Shown in pieces: positions 8,249-45,019 of a DNA stretch of 64,000 nt. The notes beneath the pieces are model-generated. The model saw only the letters and a list, made by a program, of their open reading frames with translations. It searched no databases and was not told the origin of the DNA. Every line of letters begins with the position of its first letter. Position 1 is the first letter of the stretch. This DNA comes from an uncultured delta proteobacterium. Its GTDB lineage: Bacteria; Desulfobacterota; Syntrophia; Syntrophales; UBA2192. The stretch covers positions 100,872-164,871 of the forward strand of contig CAVPJD010000031.1 of the NCBI GenBank assembly GCA_963705165.1. Direction: 5' to 3'. The translations under genes and the position numbers were made by a program.

Positions 8249-11200
8249 CTACTGCAGGTTGCCGCTCGTGTCGTACTTCACGATGAAGCCGTCGTTGCCT
8301 CCGGCATTGCTCGCACCGTCGAGGCTGCCCGAGGTGTGTCCCGTCATGAAGGTGGTGCCGCTCGTATCGACGGCAACGGACCGCCCGTAATCCCCCGCCG
8401 TTGTCCCCAGCATGCTCGTCCACTGCCGGGTTCCAGACGTGTTGTACTTGAGCAGGATCAGGTCGTGGCTCCCAGCAGGCGTGAAACCGTCGAGCGCGGC
8501 ATTGGTGTTTCCGGAGATGTAGGCATTCCCGCTCGAATCGACGGTCAGCCCGGAGGCGACGTCGTTGCCCGCGGCGCCGTGGAAGACGGACCACTGCTTC
8601 GTGCCCGAGGAATTGAACTTCGCCAGGAAGATGTCCTCCGTCGTGCCGCTTCCGTCGCTGTTGGTCCCCCCGTCGAAATGGCCATAGGAATGGCCCGCCG
8701 CGTAAACGTTTTCGGACCCGTCGACGGCGACGCCGTAGCAGTAGTCGAACACGGTGGACCCGAGCATCCGCGTCCATTGCCTCGTCCCCGAGGAATTGTA
8801 CTTGGCGACGAAGATGTCCTGGATGCCGGCATTCGTCTCCCCGTCCAGGCTGCCCCGGCTCATGCCCGAGATATAGACGTTGCCGCTCGAGGCGACGGCC
8901 ACGGCGTAGGAGTAGGTCAGCGTCGCGTTCCCCAGCAGGCGCGTCCATTGAAGCGTCCCCGACGAGTTGTACTTGGCGAGGAAGGCGTCGGTGCCGCCGG
9001 AATTCGTCTCACCCCCCAGGTTTCCGTCCGTAAAGCCGGAGATAAAGACATTGCCGCTGGCGTCGACGGCGACGGACCAGGCGGAATCGCTCCCCGCCGT
9101 CCCCAGCAGGCGTGTCCACTGCCGGGTGCCGGACGAGTTGTACTTGATGAGCGCGGCGTCCGAGCCCCCTGCATTGGTCTCGCCGTCGAGGTTACCCGAG
9201 GTGTAGCCCGCGACGTAGATGTTGCCGCTGCCATCGACGGTGACGGCCCCCCATCCGGACTCGTCACCCACGGCGGTGCCCGAGAGACGCGTCCACTGCC
9301 GCGCCCCCGAGGCGTCGTACTTCGTGAGGAAGATGTCGTTTCCGCCGCTGTTGGTCTCCCCGTCGAGGGCTCCGGCCGTGTAACCAGCAACGTAAATGTT
9401 GCCGCTGGAATCAACGGCGACCCCGTGGCCACGATCTGTCGATGCGGTCCCGATGAGAACCGTGCCGCCCCAGGTTCCCGACTGCGTGGTGGCGTTCACG
9501 GCGGTGCACTGGGCCGAGACGTTCCCGGCCGCGTCGGCTGCCGCCACCCGGTACGCATAGGTGGTGCCCGCCGAAAGCCCCGTATCGGAGTAGCTCGTCC
9601 CCGCAGGAGACGCAATGAGGCTTCCGTCGCGGTAGACCCGGTAGCCCGCCACCGCCACGTTGTCCGTCGAGGCCGTCCAGGAAAGATCGATCCGCGACGT
9701 GGAGACCACCGTGGCCTGCAGGTTTGTGGGGACCGAGGGCGCCGTGGCATCGAGCGTCGAAACGGCAACGGCCCCGCACTGGGCCGATGCATTGCCAGCT
9801 GCGTCATAGGCCGCCACCGTGTAGCTGTAGCTCGTTACCTCGGAGAGGCCCGTGTCGGAGTAACTCGCCCCGGCCGTGGTGCCGACCTGGCTGCCGTTGC
9901 GGTAGACCCGGTAACCCGTCACGCCCACGTTGTCCGTCGAGGCCGTCCAGGTCAGGTTGATCTGGGAGGCGGAGGCCCCGGTCCCCTGGAGGTTCGAGGG
10001 GACGGAGGGCGCCGTGGCATCGGCCGTGGAGACGGCGACGGCCCCGCACTGGCTGGACACGTTGCCCGCGGCGTCGTAAGCGGCCACCCGGTAGCTGTAG
10101 CTCGTCGCCTCGGTGAGGCCTGTGTCGGAGTAGCTCGCCCCGGCCGTGGTGCCGACCTGGCTGCCGTTGCGGTAGACCCGGTAACCCGTCACGCCCACGT
10201 TGTCCGTCGAGGCCGTCCAGGTCAGGTTGATCTGCGAGGCGGAGGCTGCCGTCCCCTGGAGGTTTGCGGGCACCGACGGCACCGTGGCATCCAGCGTGGT
10301 GACGGCCACGGCCCCGCACTGGGAGGACTCGTTGCCCGAGGCATCGACAGCCGCCACGCGGTAGCTGTAGCTCGTGGCCTCGGAGAGCCCCGTGTCGTTG
10401 TAGCTCGTACCGGCGGGAGAGGCGACAAGGCTGCCGTTTCGGTAGACCCGGTAGCCTGTCACGGCCAGGTTGTCCGTCGAGGCGGTCCAGGTCAGGTTGA
10501 TCTGTGAGGTGGAGGCTGCCGTTCCCTGGAGGTTCGAGGGAACCGACGGGGTTGTTGCATCGGCGGTGTAGACGGCAACGCCACCGCAGAGGGAAGACAA
10601 ATTGCCCTCGTCGTCGTAGGCCGCGATCGTGTAGGTGTAGCTCGTGGCCTCCGAGAGTCCCGTGTCGGAATAGCCTGTCCCGGCCGTTGTCCCGACCTGG
10701 CTGCCGTTTCGGTAGACCCGGTAGCCCGTAACCCCGGCGTTGTCCGTCGAGGCTGTCCAGGTCAGATCGATCCGGGATGTAGAGGCGGCAGTCCCCTGGA
10801 GGTTCGAGGGAACCGACGGAGGGGTTGCGTCGACCGTTGTTGCGGAAAGAGGCGAGCTCTGGGAGGATTCGTTGCCCTCTGCGTCGTAGGCCGCCACCCG
10901 GTAAGTATAGGTGGTGTACTCGGAAAGCCCCGTGTCGGAGTAACTTGTGCCCGTGGTGGTTCCGATGACGGCGCCGTTGCGGTAGATCCGGTAGCCTGTT
11001 ACCCCCACGTTGTCGGTGGATGCCGTCCAGGCCAGATCGATCCGGGAAGTCGATACGGCTGTCCCCTGGAGGCTCCCGGGAGCCGAGGGGGCCGATCCGT
11101 CCGCCGTGGCGACAAAGAGTGTGGTGCTCTTGGCGGATTCATTCCCGATCCAGTCGAAGGCGGAGACCCGATACCCGTAGGAGGTTCCCGGAGTGAGGCC

Positions 11201-11446
11201 CGTGTCGGTATAAGACGTCAACGGGGTGCTTCCCACACGGGAGCCGTCGCGGTAGACCCTGTACCCCAGCATCACGAGATCATCCTGCGACTCCGTCCAG
11301 TTCAGCTGGACACTGTCCGAAGATACGGCGGCAGCCTGTACACCCGTGGGAACGGACGGCGGGTACTGGTCACTGGAGGATCCACAGCCGTACAGCGAAG
11401 ACAGGACTATCAGCAGTGCAGCTGCGCAACAGGCGCGATTCATCAT
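8249..11446 (-). CDS. Surface lipoprotein: 7 fibronectin type III repeats plus 7-bladed SBBP beta-propeller
   Basis: Lipobox LYGC; seven 90-aa PS.P..L....L.W.ASTDN....GYRVYR.G repeats; seven AVD.SGN.Y..G repeats. Confidence 0.9.
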   Translation of the reverse strand: MMNRACCAAALLIVLSSLYGCGSSSDQYPPSVPTGVQAAAVSSDSVQLNWTESQDDLVMLGYRVYRDGSRVGSTPLTSYTDTGLTPGTSYGYRVSAFDWIGNESAKSTTLFVATADGSAPSAPGSLQGTAVSTSRIDLAWTASTDNVGVTGYRIYRNGAVIGTTTGTSYSDTGLSEYTTYTYRVAAYDAEGNESSQSSPLSATTVDATPPSVPSNLQGTAASTSRIDLTWTASTDNAGVTGYRVYRNGSQVGTTAGTGYSDTGLSEATSYTYTIAAYDDEGNLSSLCGGVAVYTADATTPSVPSNLQGTAASTSQINLTWTASTDNLAVTGYRVYRNGSLVASPAGTSYNDTGLSEATSYSYRVAAVDASGNESSQCGAVAVTTLDATVPSVPANLQGTAASASQINLTWTASTDNVGVTGYRVYRNGSQVGTTAGASYSDTGLTEATSYSYRVAAYDAAGNVSSQCGAVAVSTADATAPSVPSNLQGTGASASQINLTWTASTDNVGVTGYRVYRNGSQVGTTAGASYSDTGLSEVTSYSYTVAAYDAAGNASAQCGAVAVSTLDATAPSVPTNLQATVVSTSRIDLSWTASTDNVAVAGYRVYRDGSLIASPAGTSYSDTGLSAGTTYAYRVAAADAAGNVSAQCTAVNATTQSGTWGGTVLIGTASTDRGHGVAVDSSGNIYVAGYTAGALDGETNSGGNDIFLTKYDASGARQWTRLSGTAVGDESGWGAVTVDGSGNIYVAGYTSGNLDGETNAGGSDAALIKYNSSGTRQWTRLLGTAGSDSAWSVAVDASGNVFISGFTDGNLGGETNSGGTDAFLAKYNSSGTLQWTRLLGNATLTYSYAVAVASSGNVYISGMSRGSLDGETNAGIQDIFVAKYNSSGTRQWTRMLGSTVFDYCYGVAVDGSENVYAAGHSYGHFDGGTNSDGSGTTEDIFLAKFNSSGTKQWSVFHGAAGNDVASGLTVDSSGNAYISGNTNAALDGFTPAGSHDLILLKYNTSGTRQWTSMLGTTAGDYGRSVAVDTSGTTFMTGHTSGSLDGASNAGGNDGFIVKYDTSGNLQ

Positions 11447-11958
11447 TCAGCAGCCTCCCCATAGGATGCGAGACGGGTTGCCCGGTGAAGATATTTATAA
11501 TTTCCAATGTTTTTAAGCACTTGTCACTCCCCTTGCCTGCCAGGATCGAAAACGGGCAAGGCGATCCCTTTCCTCTCTATTTATCGGCAGATTTGCGCCG
11601 AAATTGAGGCCTGATTAAACGGTGTGGTTGTCTGATTGAATCCGGGAAACGGCCCGAAACGGGTGGCGGATGAAAAAATATGCCGTTTCCGCTCCGGGCA
11701 GGGGGCCCGGTGCGGAAACGGCATTGTTTGCAAGCACCGTCCCGAGGGGGGTCAGTCGCAGGGGGTCCTGCTTCGGGGAGTCGGGCACGGCACCGATTTA
11801 TGTATACAAAATGCAGTATACAAAAGCAAGGACTTTCCCCTTCTGCCGGGTCCCGCCCGTTACTCGCATTTGGCTGTTTTTCAGCCCGGTAATCTGGTGT
11901 ATGATTAAAAGAAACGGACCGGACGGTGCCGGGTGAAAAAGAAGGAGGACGAAACAGC

Positions 11959-37028: not shown

Positions 37029-37168
37029 AAAAGCGCCCCGTTTATGCAGGGCGCCTCAACACCGGCCATGCAACGAGCTGATTGTGTGCCTGGCGAGAGG
37101 ATTTTCTTGCCCGGCAAACAGCTCCGTCGCATCCATTATGCTTTGTCTGTGTCACTCCCTCCGGTCGA

Positions 37169-37519
37169 TCATTCCGAATCGACGAAGAACTTCGTGATGA
37201 AGAACCCCAAGAGGATCAGCAGCACGGAGAGGTCCGCCCGGTCGAGAAGCCACAGAAGGAACTCCTTGACGACGACGACCTTGTTGAGAAAGCTGAAATA
37301 GCCGGCCGGGAGATTCTTCACCAGGGCAATGGACGGATACCTCGTCCACTCGTCGTGCCCGATCCAGCCGTAAAGCTGATATGCGAAAAGCAGGGTCCCG
37401 GAAAGAAAGATGAAGTTGGCCAGCCAGGACAGCAGGGACACCCTTTTTACTTTCGCTGCTGTGTTGGCAGGGTGGGAATACTGAAACCTCCACGCGGAAT
37501 GCCCATCGGACGGATCCAT
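37169..37519 (-). CDS. Small two-TM membrane protein downstream of c-di-GMP riboswitch
   Basis: AAGGAGG SD before ATG 37519; two hydrophobic helices; YQ.Y.W....W motif. Confidence 0.72.
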   Translation of the reverse strand: MDPSDGHSAWRFQYSHPANTAAKVKRVSLLSWLANFIFLSGTLLFAYQLYGWIGHDEWTRYPSIALVKNLPAGYFSFLNKVVVVKEFLLWLLDRADLSVLLILLGFFITKFFVDSE

Positions 37520-37583
37520 AGCAGACACCTCCTTTTTAGTATGGGGCGTGCGGGACAACCGTCCATGGAGATGCACCGCTCAC

Positions 37584-37670
37584 CCGGCAACCCCGCCGCC
37601 CTATCCGGATGCCCGGACGTAGGCCGGTGGCTTTGCGTCCCGCCCTTTCGGGCGGTTTGCCCTTTCCAGG
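37584..37670 (-). ncRNA. c-di-GMP-I (GEMM) riboswitch
   Basis: GGAAAGGGCAAACCGCCC-GAAA-GGGCGGGACGCAAAGCCACCGGCCTAC...GGCGGCGGGGTTGCCG matches GEMM consensus (GGCAAACC, GNRA loop, GACGCAAAGC). Confidence 0.93.
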
Positions 37671-37882
37671 TACAAGCCTCCGGTCCGCGCAGATCGCACA
37701 GCACGTGAAGGAATATGTTGTAAGGCAGCTCGGTCTGAAGGCTTCGTTATCTCTATCGGCTCACGCCGCCCTTTCCTTTAGCGATTTTTTCTTTCTCTGT
37801 CCCGCCCCATGCCGACGAAGCCATTCTGATCGCTCTCCGGAGCGCGATCGAACAGGGCTGAATTGGCGGCCTGCCGCCGTAT

Positions 37883-37899
37883 ATACGCCACGGGGGTAT
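37883..37899. promoter_or_regulatory. Second CsoR/CstR-type operator
   Basis: ATACGCCA-C-GGGGGTAT: right half identical to, left half 2 mismatches from, the 4470-4486 operator. Confidence 0.65.
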
Positions 37900-37923
37900 T
37901 CCCGGCCAACCGCGTAATATGGG

Positions 37924-37951
37924 TTGACAATTCTCAGGGTGCCGTTACAAT
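37924..37951 (+). promoter_or_regulatory. sigma70 promoter of cytochrome/rhodanese operon
   Basis: TTGACA-16 nt-TACAAT, 34 nt upstream of ATG 37985. Confidence 0.7.
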
Positions 37952-37984
37952 ATTTTGCACCGTCCAACCCTTCCATGAGGACCT

Positions 37985-39244
37985 ATGAAGGCTCGGCTCA
38001 CAATCCTGATCAGCCTGCTCATCGCTCCTCTCCTTCTATTCGTGTCTTCATCGAGCACTGCCAATAACCCCAGCAGCTGCGTCACCTGCCACACCGACGA
38101 GGCCATGCTGAAGAAAACCTGCAAACCCTTCGTGATTCCCGAGGGTGAGGGCGAGGGGTGAGCGGGGGCGCCTCCGCCGGTCAAGGCGGAAACCTACCAC
38201 CTGAGTTTCCTCGTCGACAAAAAGCTCGTCGAGACGGACAAGCACTTCGAGAAGGGCTGCGTCCAGTGCCACAAGGGAAACGACAAAGCAGGACGACAAG
38301 GATGCCGCCCACGAGGGGATGGTGAAGCGCCCCTCCGATGACCTGGCCCTCTGCGGGGAGTGCCACCAGGAGATCGCCGCGAACTACAAAAAATCTCTCC
38401 ACTACACGACGATCGGCCAGCGCAACCGGGTGGTCAAGAGGATGTCGAAGGAGGAGACGAAGGTCTTCGACGAAAAGGTCTTCGAAAAATCCTGCCGGTC
38501 CTGCCACGCCACCTGCGGCGACTGCCACGTGAAATCGCCATCCATCGGCGGGGTGAGCGTCGGCCTCATCAACAAGCACAAGTTCGTGCGGAAAGACGAG
38601 GGCAAGACCTGCGCCTTCTGCCATGGCGGCCGCGTCTACCCCGAGTACACAGGCGAGTACGGCGGCAACGCCGACGTCCACTACCAGAAGGGCATGATGT
38701 GCATGGACTGCCACACCATGGACGAGATCCACGGCGACGGCAGGGCCTACGCGCAAAAGGAGGAGGTCCGCGACCGGCCCGCGCTGCACCGACTGCCACG
38801 AGCCCGGCAGGGAGACGAAGCTGACGGCCCGAGTGGCCCACCTCAAGCACAGCGAGACGGCCAGCTGCTTACGCCTGTCACTCGGCGGGCGAGTACCGGC
38901 AGTGCTACGACTGCCATCTCGGCGGCGGCTCCGAGGCCAAGCCGGGCTTTTTCCTGGGGACGAGCCCGAGGAACCGCAAGGAGATCACAACGCTGCGCGT
39001 CATCCCCACGGTGCGTGAAAGCTTCAAACCCGCAGGAATCCAGCAGGCGAACTTCGACGCCCTGCCCAACTACTGGGACGCTCCGATCCACAACATCCGC
39101 AAGCGCACGGAGAGGACCCGAAACTGCGACACTTGCCACGAAGACAGGAAGGGCTTTCTCACCATGGAGACCCTCCTGAAGAACAGCTCCCGGACGAACC
39201 TGGAGCTGATCCATAAACCGAAACCCATACCCATCAGCAAATAA
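37985..39244 (+). CDS. Periplasmic 11-heme cytochrome c selenoprotein (Sec59, UGA 38159-38161); three apparent frameshifts (~38290, ~38782, ~38868)
   Basis: Signal peptide, CVTCH, EGEGEG-TGA-AGAPPP in frame to CVQCH; further CGECH, CRSCH, CGDCH, CAFCH, CMDCH, CTDCH, CYACH, CYDCH, CDTCH; SECIS-like hairpin after TGA. Confidence 0.82.
38173..38190 (+). promoter_or_regulatory. Bacterial SECIS element
   Basis: TCCGCC-GGTCAA-GGCGGA hairpin; G-initiated loop starts 18 nt after UGA. Confidence 0.75.
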
Positions 39245-39254
39245 GGAGGTTTTT

Positions 39255-40139
39255 ATGGTCAAAGCGAAAATGAAAGTCATGGTAGGCCTGCTGGCCGTTC
39301 TTCTGCTCCTGCCGGCCGCGGCATCGCGGGAGAGCCCTTCGTCACGACGGAGTGGCTCCAGGCCAATCTTTCCAAGGTAACGGTTCTCGATGTCCGCAAG
39401 GTGGAAGAATACAACGCCGGCCACATCCCCGGCGCCATCAACGTTTTCTATGGCGTTTGGGGCATTAAGAAGGGGGTGCTTCATCAACGAGCTGCCCGCC
39501 GACGACGATCTGAGGGACATCCTGTCGGCCAACGGCATCGAGCCCACCACGAAGGTTGTGGTGGTCTCGAAGAACGAGACCATGCCGTTTCGCACGGATG
39601 CGACACGGGTCGCCTGGACCCTGCGATACGCAGGCGTGGAGAACGTGGCCGTCCTGAGCGGAGGCATCGAGAAATGGGAAGCGGAAAAGAGGGCCCTTTC
39701 GAAGGACGCCGTGAAACCCAAGGCGAAGGCCTACAAGGGCAAGTTAAACAAGCAGTACACTGCGAACAAGGCCTACGTCACGGGCGCCATGGGCAAGGCT
39801 GTGCTCGTCGATGTCCGGCCGCCGGAATTCTACAAGGGCGAGAAGAAGTTGGACTTCGTCGCCAAGACGGGCCGCATCAAGGGCGCCGTGAACCTGCCGC
39901 CCGGAGCGCTGTACAATGCGGACGGCACCTACAAGAGCAAGGCGGAAATCGAGGCTATCGCCAAGCCCGTCGTGGGGGCCGATCTCAACAAGGAGATCAT
40001 CGTATATTGCGACACCGGAAAGGTCTGCACGAACTGGTGGCTGGCCCTCAACGACCTGCTGGGCTACAACAACGTGAAGGTCTATGACGGCTCCTCCATG
40101 GAATGGATGGCGGACCCCGCTGCGCCTTCAGAGCCCTGA
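39255..40139 (+). CDS. Secreted tandem-domain rhodanese/sulfurtransferase; frameshifts near 39325 and 39475
   Basis: AAGGAGG SD, signal peptide, LDVR..EEYNAGHIPGA, L.GG...W, DVRP..FY.G, GRI.GA, IVYCDTG active-site loop, VYDGS..EW. Confidence 0.88.
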
Positions 40140-40265
40140 GCCTGTAATGGATCTGTACTGATGTAATCCCGGCACCCCGCGGGGTGCCGGGATCTCACGA
40201 AAATGCGTTGCCGGAATTTGAACCGAAAATTTTCCGTCTTGCCGCCCTGAACTGCGGGGACTCTC

Positions 40266-42267
40266 ATGAGCCGGTTCAAGAAAGCCTGTGTCCTCCTTCT
40301 CCTGGCCCTGTTCGTGCCGCTCACGCTGGATGCCGCGCGCGCGCCGGACTGGAAGCACGAGGACATCTGGCTCAAGAACGAGCAGGGGCAGCGCATCACC
40401 CCCACGAGAAACAGCGCCGACGCCTATTCGCCCCACCGGACCTGCGGGACCTGCCACGGCTACATGACCATCACGTCGGGCACCCACTTCCAGCAGGGCT
40501 TCGACGAGATGAAGGACGGCTACGACCCGAAGCGCCCCTGGGTCCTCTCCCCCGGCAACTTCGGCAAGGGGGGAGACCCGGGTACATTCACCGAGCGGGT
40601 CGCCGCGAAAAAAAACACCAGTGCCCGCGACATGGGGCACTCCACCTACGACTGGATCGCCGCCGCGGCGGCAAGGGCCAGGTCATCGCCACGGCGTCCG
40701 GCTGGACCCACCCCGGCGGCGGGCCGATGGAGTTCGGCAGAAAAGCCGACGGCAGGCGCGACCTCTCGAAAAACCTCGTCCAGGGGGAGCCCCTGAAGCC
40801 CCTGCCTCTGGACGGGGACTACACCTCCCGCCACACCCCCGACGGGAAAAGCCGTTTCCGGGAGAGCGGTGTCGTGGAGGGGGACTGCCTGATGTGCCAC
40901 CTGAAGGGCTATCGCCTCGATCAGAGAAACCGGCAGCTCGGACTCCGCAACTACCGCTGGGCAGCCACGGCGGGCGCAGGGCTGGGCGAGATCCGGGGCT
41001 CCGTTTTCGCCTTCGACAACCCCGAGGCCGGGCCCGCCGTCGAGGGATACGACAGGGGGTCGTGGAACTTCTCGACCCGCCCCGCCGTCCGGTACGCATG
41101 GGATGACCGCAAACTCTTTACGCCCGAAGGGAAATTCAAGGGGAGCCGGCTGATCAACAAATCCGTCGAACCGGACAACTGCACCCAGTGTCACCGCCAG
41201 ATGGACGGCCAGAAGTCGGGAACCCTCTACCTGCCCGCGGGCGACCTTCACCTCAAGGCGGGGCTTCGCTGCACCGACTGCCACACCCTGGCGGGAAAGA
41301 CGCAGGCCGAACGCCTCCGGCACCGGATCGGCAAGGGGTGGTCGCCCACGGCCACCGCCCGCAACGACCTCGACGGGGCGGGAATGAAGACCTGCGCGAA
41401 CTGCCACCTCGAGGGCCAGTACAAGCCAACCCGGGCGGGCATGCCCAAGGAAGCCAAAAACCCCGAGAACATCCACCGCTCGCTCTTCCACAAGGCGACG
41501 TTCCATTTCTACCTGCTTCACTGCTCGGCCTGCCACGCCTCGGAAAGAAAGACCCGCAGCGTCTATCTCGTGGACTACAGCACGGGACAGCCGGCGTGGT
41601 ACTCGACGGACAAGGCCGCCCTCGTCACCCGACCCGACGACATGAAACAGATGGCGTCGGAGCTCTGGAAGCCCTGGATGGACCGACACGAACGCGCCAG
41701 GGGCGATGGCGAGCGTTATGTCCCGGCAGTGCCCAAGGTGACGCAGTGGTTCGGGGAGATGATCTCCGAGGGAATCGTAAGGCCCATCGGTCTCGAACAC
41801 GTGAGGAAAGCGGCTGCGGGCCAGAAAAAGCTCACGGTGGTCGAAGTCGCCACCCATAACGGCGAGAAGGTGAAGCAGCACCACGGTGGCCACCGAGCAG
41901 GACATGCTCCTCATGATCAAGGCCCTGAGCGACATGGGATTTAAAAACGTCGTCTTCGTAGCCGATCAGCTCTACGAACTGAAGAAGGACAAGATCCAGG
42001 GACGCCCCGTGCCGGCGCTGACGGGGGCCGTGATGTTCCCGATCTACCACGGCAACCTGCCCGTGTCGGCGAAAAAGACCCTGGGACAGAAGGGCAATAA
42101 AGACGGGTGCGCGGACTGCCATGCCGACAACTCGCCCTTCTTCACGAAGCTCAAGGTGCAGGGGCGTGGGGAAATTCCTCAAGGACAGTTACCCGACCCC
42201 GAAGGAGCCCATCGCGGAGCCGCAGATGGTGGACTGGGGACTGACGGGAGTGCCGGCCTCGGAGTAG
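40266..42267 (+). CDS. Periplasmic multiheme cytochrome c (7 CxxCH); frameshifts near 40665, 41880, 42165
   Basis: Signal peptide; CGTCH, CLMCH, CTQCH, CTDCH, CANCH, CSACH, CADCH across frames; ends WGLTGVPASE-TAG. Confidence 0.8.
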
Positions 42268-42339
42268 AAGACAGGGACCAGGGTCTAGGGTATAGGGTGA
42301 GAAAAGAGGGTCCAGGGTCAAGGGGACAGGGTATAGGGT

Positions 42340-43117
42340 ATGGAAAAGAGCGTGTGCTTCATGACTGTGCCAAATACTCTCTGATGCTCGGTGGATCATG
42401 CCTTACGGCATGTGATCCTCTCGTTGCGCTGGCGGCTTGCGGAAAGCCTGCGGAGGCCCCGCCGCCGTGGAAGGTTATCGACGCCTCGACGCTTCGCGCC
42501 ATGATGGCCTCCGACAAGGGACTTCCCGTGTACAACACGATGAGCGAGCTCGAATGCCTCGATCATCGGATTCCCGGTACCCGCTGCCTGGCCTGCGAGG
42601 ATGTCGAGAACAACCCATCCGTATTGCCTGCCGACAAAGGACCGTGACATCGTCTTTTACTGTGAGAGTGCGGGATGCTACCGGAGCTGCCGGGCTGCTG
42701 ATGCGGCCATAAAGGCTGGCTACAAACAGGTTTATATTCTGCAAGACGGGATCCCGGCCTGGAAGCAGGCGGGCTATGCCATGGAGACGATCGAGCGAAT
42801 CCCGCGTGGATCGATCCAGTCGGTGCGGGCCCAGTCGCTCAAGCAGATGCTCACGGAGCGCAAGGACATACTCCTTGTCGATGTCCGCTCGGAGAAGTCC
42901 TACAAGGAAGGCCACATCGAAGGGGCATTGAATATACCGCTGTACCGGTTCAGCAGCAGATACGCCGAGATCCCCCTGGACCGCACGGTGGTGCTCGTCG
43001 ACGACCGCGGGCTTCCGGACGTTCCTGGCGGGGAGCTACCTGGAGATGAAGGGCTACAGGGTCATGAGGCTCTTCGGCGGCATGCAGGGCTGGCAGGAAA
43101 TGAAGGCAGCGAAGTGA
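42340..43117 (+). CDS. Tandem rhodanese-domain lipoprotein; start uncertain, frameshifts near 42640 and 43012
   Basis: LAAC lipobox; HRIPG, IVFYCESAGCYRSC, GYKQVYILQDGIPAWKQAGY; second domain DVRS..SY..GHIEGA with DDRG (Cys-less) loop. Confidence 0.78.
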
Positions 43118-43151
43118 CGGGAAACTCTCCCGAACCAAACGGATGGAATCG

Positions 43152-45019
43152 ATGAAGATCGAGGCAGGACAGAGGCGAAAGGGACTCCGGGCAGGATCTT
43201 CTTCTGCTGGCGGTATTCGCCGTCCTCTGCCTGCCCCTTCCCGCCCCGGCGGCCCAGGACTGCCGGTTCTGTCACGACGAGCCGCTCTACCGCGTCGATT
43301 TCAACAAATCGATCCACGCCAACAACGGCTGCACGAGCTGCCACGTGGGGATCACGAACATCGAGAAGCACCGCGACGGCAAGGAGAAGCCCGCCCCCGT
43401 CGACTGCGGGAGCTGCCACCAGGAGATCGCGAAAGAATACCGGAACAACTTCCATTACATCCAGGAAGACTTCCGCTGCAGCGACTGTCACCGGAACATC
43501 CACTCGATCAGGCAGGACAAGAACAAAAACGTCAAGCTCGCCATCATCGAGAAGTGCACCGAGTGCCACGGCAACGCAGACTACACGGCCTCGGGCCACG
43601 GCGAGGCCGTCCTGAAGGGAAACCAGGACGCGGCGGCCTGCTCGGATTGCCACGGCCTTCACAACACCCGGGTGTTCCACACCTCACTGGAGCAATACCC
43701 CGCCGAGGCGCGCGAGTTCTACACCCAGAAATGCAAGCGCTGCCACGCCGACAGCGCCATGATGAAGCGAAACAACCTCTCGGATAAAATGGTCGCCTAT
43801 TACGAGGGCACCTACCACGGAAAGGTCCAGGAACTGGGCTACCCGGCTCCGGTGGCCGGCTGCGGCGACTGCCACACCAAGCACAACATCCTGCCGAAGG
43901 AGGACCCCCGTTCGAGCATCCACCCCGACAACCTCGAGAAGAACTGCGGACGCTGCCACACGGGCTTCCATACCCGCTTCCTGAGCTACCAGGCGCACCC
44001 CGATTACAAGGACCGGGCCAAATACCCTGCCCTGTACGTCACGTTCCTCCTCATGGGGGCGCTTCTCGTCGGGACGCTCGCTTTCTTCTGGGTCCACACC
44101 ATCCTCTGGTGGCGGAAGGTTTACTGGGAAAACGACCGCATGGAAAGAGAGGGGATCGTGCCGCGCTCGGCGGTCGCAACGGGCGAGGGCCTCCAGCAGG
44201 TGGAGCGTTTCTCCGTCAAGTACCGGATCATGCACGCGCTCCTGGTGATCTCCTTCTTCACGCTCGTGCTGACCGGGTTCCCCCTGAAATATGCCGGGAC
44301 GGAGTGGGCCGCAACGCTCACGCGCCTCTGGGGCGGCGCGCACATGGCAGGGCTCTTCCACCGCGGGGCGGCCTTCCTGCTGATCGTCGGGATGGCCTAT
44401 GTCAGCTTCGAATCCCTGCGTTTCCTCTTCCCCAAGGGCGAGGGCAAGAAGGGCTGGCTCAGCCGGCTGCTCGGCCCCGACTCGCTCTTCCCGAACCTGA
44501 AGGACCTCCAGGACTTCAACGGCAATGATCCGGTGGTTCTTCAACAAGGGCGAGCCGCCGAAATTCGACCGCTGGACCTACTGGGAAAAGTTCGACTTCC
44601 TGGCCGTCTTCTGGGGCATGTTCGCCATCGGCGGCTCCGGGATCCTGCTCTGGAAGCCCGAGTGGTCCTCTTACCTCGTGCCCGGCTGGGTCCTCAACAT
44701 CGCCGCCCTGGTGCACTCCGAGGAGGCGCTGCTGGCGGCCCTGTTCATCTTCACGATCCACTTTTTCAACACGCACTTCATCCCGAACAAGTTCCCCATG
44801 GACCGGCTCATCTTCACGGGGACCTACCGGCTCGAAGAGCTCAAGGAACAGCGGCCCCTGGAATACGAGCGCCTGGTGGCCGAGGGACGCCTGGAGTCCA
44901 TGAAGCGCGGGCACCCGAGCATCCCGCTGAAGCTCATCTCGGCCACTTTCGGCCTGGGAAGCCTGCTGCTGGGTCTTTTCCTGACCGTGGCCATCCTGTG
45001 GTCGATCCTGTTCGGGTAG
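43152..45019 (+). CDS. CbcL-like protein: nine-heme c domain fused to cytochrome b membrane domain; frameshifts near 43190 and 44520
   Basis: CRFCH, CTSCH, CGSCH, CSDCH, CTECH, CSDCH, CKRCH, CGDCH, CGRCH; ERF...RIMH, TGFPLKY, HR, FDRWTYWEKFDFLAVFWG, HSEEALLA..FIFTIHFFN. Confidence 0.85.

Follow-up and report, generated by a model that had tools for sequence, protein, structure and literature searches.

In Wolinella succinogenes, the periplasmic rhodanese-like protein Sud is a sulfur carrier that feeds PsrABC, a menaquinol-driven terminal reductase. The locus analysed here combines, similarly, a rhodanese-like carrier with what would be a quinol-fed reductase, and differs in that Psr is a molybdopterin enzyme whose catalytic subunit is not known to contain hemes c or selenocysteine (Sec). 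Sec occurs together with multiple hemes c in the Geobacter sulfurreducens selenoprotein MccSep (ExtKL; GSU2937-2936; NF040886), a cytochrome described as a polysulfide reductase in PMC13510729. Judging from the accessible part of a 2026 review (PMC13188914), Sec and CXXCH motifs coincide also in the octaheme tetrathionate reductase family (TIGR04315) and in the GSU2204 family (NF041027). The Geobacter extHIJKLMNOPQS cluster, which includes the 10-heme ExtN, the 12-heme ExtM and the rhodanese ExtH (NF040967, NF040943, NF040901), follows an operon logic similar to that of our locus. Finally, TsdA and SoxAX employ His/Cys-ligated hemes in sulfur chemistry (PMC13510729, accessible text) and may be analogous to this family with its single chalcogen residue, which is Sec or, in distant homologs, Cys; there is no sequence relation.

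The window, a stretch of 64,000 nucleotides from a metagenome-assembled genome (MAG) of the Syntrophales, contains an operon that appears conceptually similar to MccSep and to the ext cluster of Geobacter while being unrelated to them in sequence. We consider it likely that positions 37985-39244 are one copy of a gene that encodes an exported eleven-heme cytochrome c of about 419 residues, in which the UGA of codon 59 encodes Sec, and that the product works in the periplasm, in partnership with a rhodanese, as a reductase of sulfur or selenium compounds (Table 1). Like MccSep, this would be a periplasmic c-type multiheme cytochrome in which a single Sec is encoded by UGA, with a SECIS-like hairpin after the codon; its operon, like the ext cluster in the accessible part of PMC5877670, includes a rhodanese-like protein, more multiheme cytochromes and a membrane cytochrome b; and it, too, is present in both Desulfobacterota and Nitrospirota. 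Unlike MccSep, as characterized in the accessible text of PMC13510729, it has 11 hemes rather than five; its Sec is residue 59, in the context EG-U-AG, whereas U325 of MccSep is located near the C-terminus, in a D-G-U-P context and an Ig-like domain; and in our alignments Cys is invariant only within the CXXCH motifs, whereas MccSep has a conserved His/Cys-ligated heme. ExtN, in turn, is nowhere called a selenoprotein in the accessible part of PMC5877670.

Profile searches separate the family from the named ones. NF040886 (cut-off 250 bits) was absent from the hmmscan matches of two intact relatives at E <= 0.01 and had no match anywhere in this genome, and neither TIGR04315 nor NF041027 matched the intact relatives at E <= 0.01. 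The only named models touched by the cytochrome and by the adjacent tandem rhodanese Rhd1 were those of Ext proteins, with 42-44 bits over residues 85-306 of the cytochrome (42.2 and 43.6 bits for ExtN, NF040967, in the two intact relatives, against a cut-off of 200) and 69 bits for Rhd1, all far lower than the curated Ext cut-offs of 200-800 bits. As a generic multiheme cytochrome c, an intact relative scores above gathering thresholds, with 49 bits for PF14522 (Cytochrome_C7), 41 for PF14537 (Cytochrom_c3_2) and 29.5 for PF09699 (Paired_CXXCH_1); the 163-residue piece of the window itself reaches 28 bits with PF14522. No fitting Pfam or NCBIfam family, MccSep/ExtKL included, was found above cut-off, in line with a preliminary description of this DNA that could name no selenoprotein family for the gene. 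The literature searched holds no description of it either, with the proviso that the supplementary homolog lists of PMC13510729 and the full table of PMC13188914, which lie beyond the accessible text, might name the family differently.

Relatives occur in 254 species-level genomes and form 138 clusters at 50% identity (E <= 1e-30). In 112 of the best 120 database matches the N-terminus, with the signal peptide and the first heme, is cut off, so that the family is invisible to gene callers. The earlier suggestion of an unannotated selenoprotein cytochrome is supported by the conservation of the UGA, by the hairpin and the constraint at the RNA level, by Cys in distant homologs and by the Sec machinery, and the gene appears to belong outside any named selenoprotein family. 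If so, a widespread selenoprotein family is being missed, and annotation pipelines need a model for it; this would be the second kind of multiheme selenoenzyme after MccSep, different in fold and in the position of Sec, and it would suggest that syntrophic Syntrophales, commonly viewed as fermenting partners of methanogens, respire sulfur or selenium.

Table 1. Features of the putative selenoprotein cytochrome gene and of the genes that follow it (window coordinates)
Feature	Position	Strand	Remarks
11-heme cytochrome c selenoprotein gene (putative), as assembled	37985..39244	+	~419 codons allowing for frame breaks; one in-frame TGA and three +1 breaks; intact relatives 412-420 aa
Probable Sec-type signal peptide MKARLTILISLLIAPLLLFVSSSSTA	37985..38062	+	judged by eye; N-terminal pattern same in relatives
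Heme motif 1, CVTCH	38078..38092	+	sole motif ahead of the Sec codon; invariant in alignments A1 and A2
TGA, codon 59, read as selenocysteine	38159..38161	+	conserved in relatives; context EGEGEG-TGA-AGAPPPV
SECIS-like hairpin	38172..38191	+	stem UCCGCC 38173-38178 / GGCGGA 38185-38190, loop GGUCAA 38179-38184
Heme motif 2, CVQCH	38258..38272	+	last motif of the starting frame ahead of the first break
Second-frame piece, 163 aa, heme motifs 3-7	38286..38774	+	CGECH 38352, CRSCH 38493, CGDCH 38514, CAFCH 38610, CMDCH 38700
First extra base (+1)	38288..38292	+	exact letter ambiguous; one letter fewer in contigs of 3 other metagenomes
Second extra base (+1)	38776..38781	+	CCC G vs CC G in relatives
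Third-frame piece with heme motif 8	38779..38871	+	CTDCH 38785-38799
C-terminal piece, first frame again, heme motifs 10 and 11	38864..39241	+	CYDCH 38903, CDTCH 39125
Third extra base (+1)	38869..38872	+	TT vs T in relatives; splits heme motif 9 (CYACH in relatives)
Periplasmic tandem rhodanese Rhd1	39255..40139	+	CDTGKVC as active-site loop; frame broken twice, near 39327 and 39483
Second multiheme cytochrome	40239..42264	+	in no named family; relatives have 678 aa; three frame changes in this copy
Second rhodanese-domain protein Rhd2	42420..43114	+	two frame changes
Multiheme cytochrome c fused to membrane cytochrome b (Ni_hydr_CYTB / FdhC-like)	43228..45013	+	one frame change

The cytochrome reading starts with ATG 37985 and terminates with TAA 39242-39244. 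Its N-terminus, a basic and hydrophobic segment that ends in SSSSTA, reads by eye as a signal peptide, and the other elements pointed out previously for this region, namely CVTCH, Cys46, the TGA at codon 59 and the continuation of the same frame to CVQCH, are all present. Beyond CVQCH, the preliminary description had assumed one frame through the 10-heme part, whereas the starting frame turns there into Arg-rich nonsense with further TGAs at codons 119 and 280; the three +1 breaks had gone unnoticed. Since the 11 CXXCH motifs (one before the TGA and ten after it) are spread over three frames, no single frame contains the heme-rich part, and the reading returns to the first frame because the three shifts sum to three.

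Bacterial SECIS elements are hairpins placed close to the UGA on its 3' side, with G and U in the apical loop. The conserved hairpin of this family has both features, a spacing of 11-12 nt and an invariant GU in the loop. The 6-bp stem with a GGUCAA loop that had been noted before is there, but it was misplaced: in the window the stem begins 11 nt after the UGA, not 18, and it is the loop that lies some 18 nt away. In relatives the stem comprises 6-7 bp, the seventh pair being C.A in the window copy, and the loop conforms to NGUNNN, with G22 and U23 invariant in 75/75 sequences. The hairpin cells of the alignment are paired in 84.6% of cases, as compared to 30-55% when the hairpin is slid along the alignment. 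Compensatory changes affect two stem pairs (five cells), and the covariation score was reached by none of 500 shuffles; this covariation is thin because most of the stem bases are fixed by the codons of PPPV..AE. As the energy of the single-sequence fold is no better than that of shuffles (z = -0.43), the support for the predicted hairpin is comparison with relatives, not energy. Within the gene, synonymous constraint, assessed for 54 non-redundant sequences in 187 sliding windows, peaks at the UGA site, which all of the eight most constrained windows overlap. The proline at +4 is encoded by CCT in 51/53 sequences, with a codon entropy of 0.23 bits versus at least 1.24 bits at nine other conserved Pro columns, and the one at +5 by CCG in 50/54. 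The sole locus with CGA in place of the TGA has a C.C mismatch in the stem.

A search for the Sec machinery, advised in the preliminary description, recovered most of it: selA (611 bits), a selD that is itself Sec-containing, with one in-frame TGA, and tRNA-Sec were found, but selB was not found in this MAG, which is 84% complete. The best TIGR00475 match, a selB candidate on C25, was rejected because it proved to be IF-2, and a search for a SelB-wing domain found none. Among the relatives, selB scores above cut-off in 38 of 41, and all 17 same-genus genomes have it. The MAG is also devoid of rpoB, gyrA and, apparently, EF-Tu, so that the missing selB may reflect mere incompleteness.

The expectation that homologs would have either TGA or Cys at the site, along with a conserved hairpin, held in large part: TGA is nearly universal, the hairpin is conserved and Cys occurs in distant forms, but several close relatives have other residues encoded by sense codons. 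Among 41 cluster representatives of distant 11-heme homologs, Cys is the commonest residue in the Sec column (9/41), and it lies within two columns in four more. In eight close family members the site is a sense codon, for R, W, S, Y, W, A, A and R, respectively, and thus in no case for Cys; the CGA-carrying genome, moreover, retains selA. Sec at position 59 can therefore, it seems, be lost without a replacement by Cys. The two close W variants (P0011 and P0033) are suspected to be TGA translated under a TGA=Trp table; the contig of P0011 itself was not recovered in the metagenome contig scan, where the best match showed 75% identity, and a database search for full-length sense-codon variants with residues 28-100 gave no matches. 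The proposed pairing of U59 with Cys46 did not survive the alignment: the latter column contains V, Y, F and other residues in A1, so that such a pair is not a family feature, and Cys46 was rejected as the partner of Sec.

An AlphaFold2 model built from a 71-sequence alignment has a mean pLDDT of 71.5, with values below 50 for residues 52-67, which form the Sec loop, and for residues 172-217; it gives no confident position of U59 and no readable distance from U59 to a heme site. Foldseek returned no match at E <= 0.001 from a PDB library that extends to April 2026 and may lack MccSep, and phmmer returned nothing from the PDB below E 0.07. The family alignments contain only nine invariant spare His for the 11 hemes. 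It is conceivable, although on balance we doubt it, that, of the two hemes without an invariant spare His, one has U59 as its sixth ligand, which would make a natural His/selenolate heme. Distant Cys-type homologs would then have His/Cys ligation, as in TsdA or SoxA, and U59 would leave the iron to take a persulfide or perselenide from the rhodanese. If real, this would be a second, independent combination of selenium and heme for chalcogen reduction, with one residue doing what takes two in MccSep.

The cytochrome gene is adjoined by the rhodanese gene in 66/81 loci. Some loci (L104, L108 and L112) are two-gene modules of just the cytochrome and the rhodanese, and natural fusions of the two proteins also exist (P0157 and P0178); from this adjacency and these fusions we infer a partnership between them. 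The fourth gene after that of the cytochrome encodes a cytochrome c/b fusion that is presumably CbcL-like and a quinol oxidase. Judging from gene context only, the module is probably a reductase of sulfur or selenium compounds. The cytochrome would act in the periplasm together with the co-transcribed tandem rhodanese. A persulfide, polysulfide or perselenide bound to the active-site Cys of the rhodanese would be delivered to U59, and its transfer to the selenolate would create an Se-S or Se-Se adduct. Electrons passing along the heme chain would then reduce this adduct; they may arrive from the quinol pool via the cytochrome b/c fusion encoded downstream and the other multiheme cytochrome of the operon. 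Sulfur or polysulfide may well be the substrate, a proposal we hold with slightly less than even confidence; selenium compounds seem an unlikely choice, and something else would account for the rest.

Several other readings of the locus have to be weighed against this scenario. That the UGA is a true stop, leaving two products or a dead gene, or that it is read through by some means other than Sec insertion, is highly improbable. Gene callers do stop there, which yields the truncated N-termini mentioned above, and selB is missing from this MAG; yet the codon is TGA in 79 of 80 loci from species-level genomes, the remaining one being CGA, and in all 76 metagenome loci that cover the site (the other four of 80 do not reach it), while TAA or TAG occurs in neither of these sets. 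The relatives' loci have TGA in 19/19 (17 intact, one cut by a contig end and one frameshifted), a set that overlaps in species with the 80 genomes. In TGA loci the context is always EG-TGA-AG-x-P-P-x-V, kept across Syntrophales and in part of the Nitrospirota, Syntrophorhabdaceae, Desulfuromonadales and Geobacteraceae. Also against a stop speak the RNA constraint downstream of the codon, the presence of selB in all congeners and the ordinary use of TGA as a terminator elsewhere, as it ends 11 of the 25 longest open reading frames of the window, the rhodanese gene and, in L017, L031 and L032, the same cytochrome gene. Furthermore, the relatives compared show no separate signal peptide for the 10-heme downstream part, as had been argued from the window. 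Taken together, these data indicate that translation has to continue through the UGA, with selenocysteine as the most likely residue. An RNA-library contig identical to the window over 38016-38207 spans the TGA; contigs of this kind cover the gene partially and show its presence in an RNA library, not expression. Granted Sec insertion, the UGA and SECIS near the 5' end could still be mainly a selenium-dependent translation gate for the operon, with a chemically idle side chain at residue 59. The early UGA in the first gene of the operon, the low-confidence Gly-rich loop in which the site resides and the R, W, S, Y or A of the close sense variants would suit such a gate, but distant homologs have Cys there more often than any other residue, and the retention of AG-x-PP-x-V in the sense variants argues for a role at the protein level, so that we regard a mere gate as improbable. 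A selenium substrate (selenite, elemental selenium, or else tellurite), with the rhodanese carrying perselenide, is a less remote yet still unlikely option. It is suggested by the weak similarity of the cytochrome to ExtN and ExtO, and of the rhodanese to ExtH, all of which belong to the selenite/tellurite operon of Geobacter, by the work on selenium-substituted rhodanese cited in the accessible part of PMC5877670 and by the activity of MccSep with selenite too (PMC13510729, accessible text); on the other hand, the Ext matches are far under the 200-bit cut-offs, MccSep prefers polysulfide according to the same text, and nothing in this sequence distinguishes sulfur from selenium.

The remaining question is whether the frame breaks are real. 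We think that the three single-base insertions in the cytochrome gene, along with some nine others spread over the four genes that follow it, are probably local assembly or consensus errors rather than decay. The competing possibility, that the operon as a whole (37.0-45.0 kb) decayed recently in this strain and is now a cluster of genuine pseudogenes, the family being a selenoprotein and this copy dead, is less likely, though weightier than those considered above. It draws on the concentration of the frame changes: 29 genes were compared with those of the relative G005, and four of the five that proved frameshifted lie within 37082-45010 (the selenoprotein gene went unscored in this count because an antisense reading frame was picked for it), whereas genes coding for 500-626 aa are intact in other parts of the window. 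Broken copies exist in other genomes as well (L024/L041, and a split match in G014). In contrast to what natural decay would produce, 10 of 11 isolated indels relative to G005 are insertions, in mixed sequence contexts, and the correctly framed pieces contain neither stop codons nor larger deletions. The dN/dS ratio of 0.155 points the same way, although recent decay would not register in this figure. All three extra bases are absent from contigs of three other metagenomes, which represent relatives of about 96% identity and not this strain, and at most 48% of the words in this stretch are contained in any one public sequencing run. As for controls for frameshifts, rpoB and gyrA were not found in the MAG, and a search for ileS gave weaker matches only, possibly to related synthetases, with intact frames of 858-885 aa. 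Until its reads have been checked, this MAG should be counted neither as lacking the cytochrome gene nor as having a pseudogene in its place. The 163-residue second-frame piece retains 87-94% identity to its counterparts in the 10 same-genus genomes with a full-length match (from the set G001-G017), and, in favour of an assembly error, a second copy of selA elsewhere in the genome is likewise split between two frames.

The cytochrome gene in the window belongs to a family of real, selenocysteine (Sec)-containing 11-heme cytochromes that is paired with a rhodanese and is undescribed as far as we could find in the literature. The preliminary description of a TGA-interrupted multiheme cytochrome c selenoprotein is supported in its main interpretation and confirmed in part as an observation. 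In particular, the start codon, a signal-peptide-like N-terminus (judged by eye), the CVTCH motif, the TGA at codon 59 (hereinafter U59, or the Sec site) and the in-frame CVQCH are all present as claimed. The single frame claimed to run through the 10-heme part is not: past CVQCH, its translation is Arg-rich nonsense with two further TGAs, and the real coding is spread over three frames. The pieces of the gene, located by translating three frames and by tblastn with an intact relative as query, carry 11 CXXCH motifs in total (all frames counted), and the third break cuts through heme motif 9, which is CYACH in the relatives. Since the +1 shifts caused by three single surplus bases within the gene sum to one codon, start and stop share one frame, and the breaks were hidden from the reader.

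Features of the cytochrome gene, in window positions
Feature	Position	Strand	Basis
ATG start	37985	+	sequence reading
Signal-peptide-like N-terminus	from 37985	+	by eye
CVTCH	38078	+	sequence reading
TGA codon 59 in EGEGEG-TGA-AGAPPPV	38159-38161	+	
CVQCH, same frame as ATG and TGA	38258	+	
TAA stop	39242	+	
First-frame piece	37985 to ~38290	+	three-frame translation and tblastn
Second-frame piece, hemes 3-7	38286-38774	+	three-frame translation and tblastn
Third-frame piece, heme 8	38779-38871	+	three-frame translation and tblastn
Piece back in first frame, hemes 10 and 11	38864-39241	+	three-frame translation and tblastn

The frame breaks are clustered, which argues against an error of assembly or consensus: 5 of 29 genes are frameshifted as compared to G005, a genome of the same genus, and four of these five lie in 37082-45010. 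The failure to find the exact strain in any sequencing run points the same way. Nevertheless, such an error is the probable cause, given that contigs of ~96% identity from three other metagenomes have one letter fewer at each of the three places, that the correctly framed pieces are free of stop codons, that comparison with the nearest intact locus gives a dN/dS of 0.155, and that insertions, in mixed contexts, make up 10 of the 11 isolated indels relative to G005. The window's copy carries cautionary frame breaks and otherwise tells nothing new on the family. Between 37082 and 45013, there are ~12 frame changes in 8 kb, nearly all of them single-base insertions (three in the cytochrome gene, two in the tandem rhodanese Rhd1, three in a second cytochrome, two in the second rhodanese-domain protein Rhd2 and one in a cytochrome b/c fusion), as against a single one in the 24 remaining genes of the G005 comparison. 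Further broken copies exist: the copy L024/L041 shifts frame a short way past the Sec site, and the cytochrome match at G014:C114:3112-3601, in another genome of the genus, is split across two frames.

The TGA itself is shared by the homologs, as the preliminary description had proposed to check. When 40 related genomes were searched in six frames, with the 163-aa middle piece as query, the gene turned up in 24 of them, in addition to the window's own genome, and nearly all returned loci showed a long open frame of 356-361 codons, as expected with a stop ~60 codons past the true start. When the DNA was read, all 19 relatives' loci had TGA in the context EG-TGA-AGAPPPV, in each case with the start codon, signal peptide and first CXXCH upstream of it; after trimming of over-long predicted starts, 17 of them are intact genes of 412-420 codons, the other two being truncated at a contig end and frameshifted (L024), respectively. 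When each species was represented by a single genome, the scan detected a relative in 254 genomes, and the best 80 loci have TGA at the site in 79 cases and CGA in one (L053), although the species overlap with those of the 40-genome search and kin are not independent. Among 80 metagenome-contig loci, TGA is found in all 76 that cover the site, the other four beginning downstream of it; neither TAA nor TAG occurs there in any of the 80 genome loci and 76 covering metagenome loci. By record titles, the named loci are mostly from Syntrophales, Syntrophaceae, Smithella and Syntrophus, with a few from Nitrospirota, Syntrophorhabdaceae, Desulfuromonadales and Geobacteraceae.

The evidence supports Sec, over a stop or an altered code, as the reading of this UGA. 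TGA is an ordinary stop here: among the 25 longest ORFs of the window, 11 terminate in TGA, and so do the neighbouring rhodanese gene and, in three relatives, the cytochrome gene itself. Among 54 sequences with pairwise identity below 85%, Pro+4 is CCT in 51/53 (codon entropy 0.23 bits) and Pro+5 is CCG in 50/54 (0.49 bits), as compared to a lowest value of 1.24 bits in nine other conserved Pro columns; out of 187 sliding windows, the 8 under the strongest constraint each overlap the Sec site. Judging from these codons, the RNA directly 3' of the UGA is constrained beyond the needs of the protein. A hairpin, CUCCGCC - NGUNNN - GGCGGAR, starts 10-11 nt past the UGA; in a set of 75 distinct sequences, paired cells make up 84.6%, versus 30-55% with a slid partner, compensatory changes affect two of seven pairs in five cells (C-G to G-C; G-C to U-A), and the covariation score was reached by none of 500 shuffles. 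The covariation support for the hairpin is modest because the stem overlies the PPPV..AE codons, and the single-sequence fold energy is unremarkable. The loop GU, invariant in the same 75 sequences, is part of a Val codon; since Cys-type distant homologs have L, M, I, S or R instead, it would fit that the RNA dictates this Val. In L053, the stem has a C.C mismatch, a single case.

As to the Sec machinery in the window's own genome (G000), selA, selD and tRNA-Sec were found. One selA copy is intact (611 bits); the two lie ~2.3 kb apart (C24:2181-3547 and C24:5882-7249), the match to the other being divided over two frames at model position ~245. The selD gene (C15:24305-25234) has its own in-frame TGA and thus probably encodes a selenoprotein itself. 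SelB was not found in G000, where the best match is IF-2 and a SelB-wing domain is lacking, though it is above cut-off in 17/17 other genomes of the genus and in 38/41 genomes overall. The completeness of G000 is 84% by marker count; rpoB and gyrA were not found in it, ileS was not above cut-off, and it lacks the ~180-bit selB-model matches, probably EF-Tu, that nearly all relatives give, so that it may be less complete than this estimate implies.

The preliminary description envisaged TGA or Cys at the site, and for Cys this proved correct in distant homologs but not in close ones. A profile search over 1.84 billion cluster representatives yielded 138 at E <= 1e-30; of the 41 with an N-terminal region, mostly with 10-11 CXXCH motifs, nine have Cys in the Sec column and four more within two columns, the surroundings being Gly-rich as around the Sec. 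A second Cys lies 1-3 residues upstream in five of these Cys-bearing representatives; the next commonest residues in the column are Trp (5) and Tyr (4). The N-terminus is missing from 112 of the 120 best database hits, as expected where a gene caller stops at TGA, and the eight full-length hits have R, W, S, Y, W, A, A and R, with Cys in none. For the W forms, the underlying codon might be a TGA to which a gene caller applied a Trp table. The R form is genuine DNA (CGA at L053:6181-6183, the sole sense codon among the 80 loci); the L053 genome has selA, and the locus lacks an adjacent rhodanese.

That the protein fits no nameable selenoprotein family held up. Pfam returned generic multiheme domains only, no NCBIfam model scored above cut-off (the best, ExtN and ExtO, reached 42-44 bits against 200), and NF040886, the MccSep/ExtKL model, matched neither the protein nor anything in G000. 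PDB sequences gave nothing below E 0.07, and the AlphaFold2 model (pLDDT 71.5; Sec loop <50) had no Foldseek match at E <= 0.001. MccSep contains five hemes, including a His/Cys heme, and bears U325 on an Ig-like domain at its C-terminus (PMC13510729); by contrast, the family considered here has 11 hemes, with Sec at residue 59, and lacks an invariant Cys beyond its heme motifs. A 2026 review of prokaryotic selenoproteins names ExtKL, the GSU2204 family and the octaheme tetrathionate reductase family (PMC13188914), none of whose models match the cytochrome. Full-text literature searches, which cover the main texts of papers, returned no paper describing an 11-heme selenoprotein.

In the intact relative L033, the cytochrome is followed by Rhd1 (a tandem rhodanese with a signal-peptide-like N-terminal stretch), a 678-aa multiheme cytochrome without any NCBIfam match (L033:8252-10288; window 40239-42264), Rhd2 and the b/c fusion. 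In the latter, a multiheme cytochrome c is joined with a Ni_hydr_CYTB / FdhC-type cytochrome b, the architecture of Geobacter CbcL. By tblastn over 80 loci and the window, many of which end too early to tell, Rhd1 is present in 66/81, the 678-aa cytochrome downstream of it in 49/81, Rhd2 in 41/81 and the b/c fusion in 39/81. Some loci, from Nitrospirota, Smithella and Geobacteraceae, have a unit of the cytochrome and Rhd1 only. Two database proteins, P0157 (715 aa) and P0178 (652 aa), naturally fuse the 11-heme cytochrome to a tandem rhodanese; the residue at the Sec site of P0157 is Tyr. The active-site loop CDTGKVC is kept in the window's Rhd1.

From this gene context, we infer that electrons would pass from quinol via the b/c fusion and periplasmic hemes to the active site, where the U59 selenolate would take sulfane sulfur (or selenium) off the rhodanese persulfide and the adduct on U59 would then be reduced. 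The alignments contain nine invariant spare histidines for eleven hemes, so that one or two hemes may be open or otherwise ligated, possibly by the Sec itself.

Elsewhere in the window, the overlapping stretches 9801-10187, 10069-10456, 10614-10996 and 10881-11628 all align to the same G005 segment, which suggests that 9801-11628 is a tandem repeat of ~270 nt or else a repetitive gene that has expanded.
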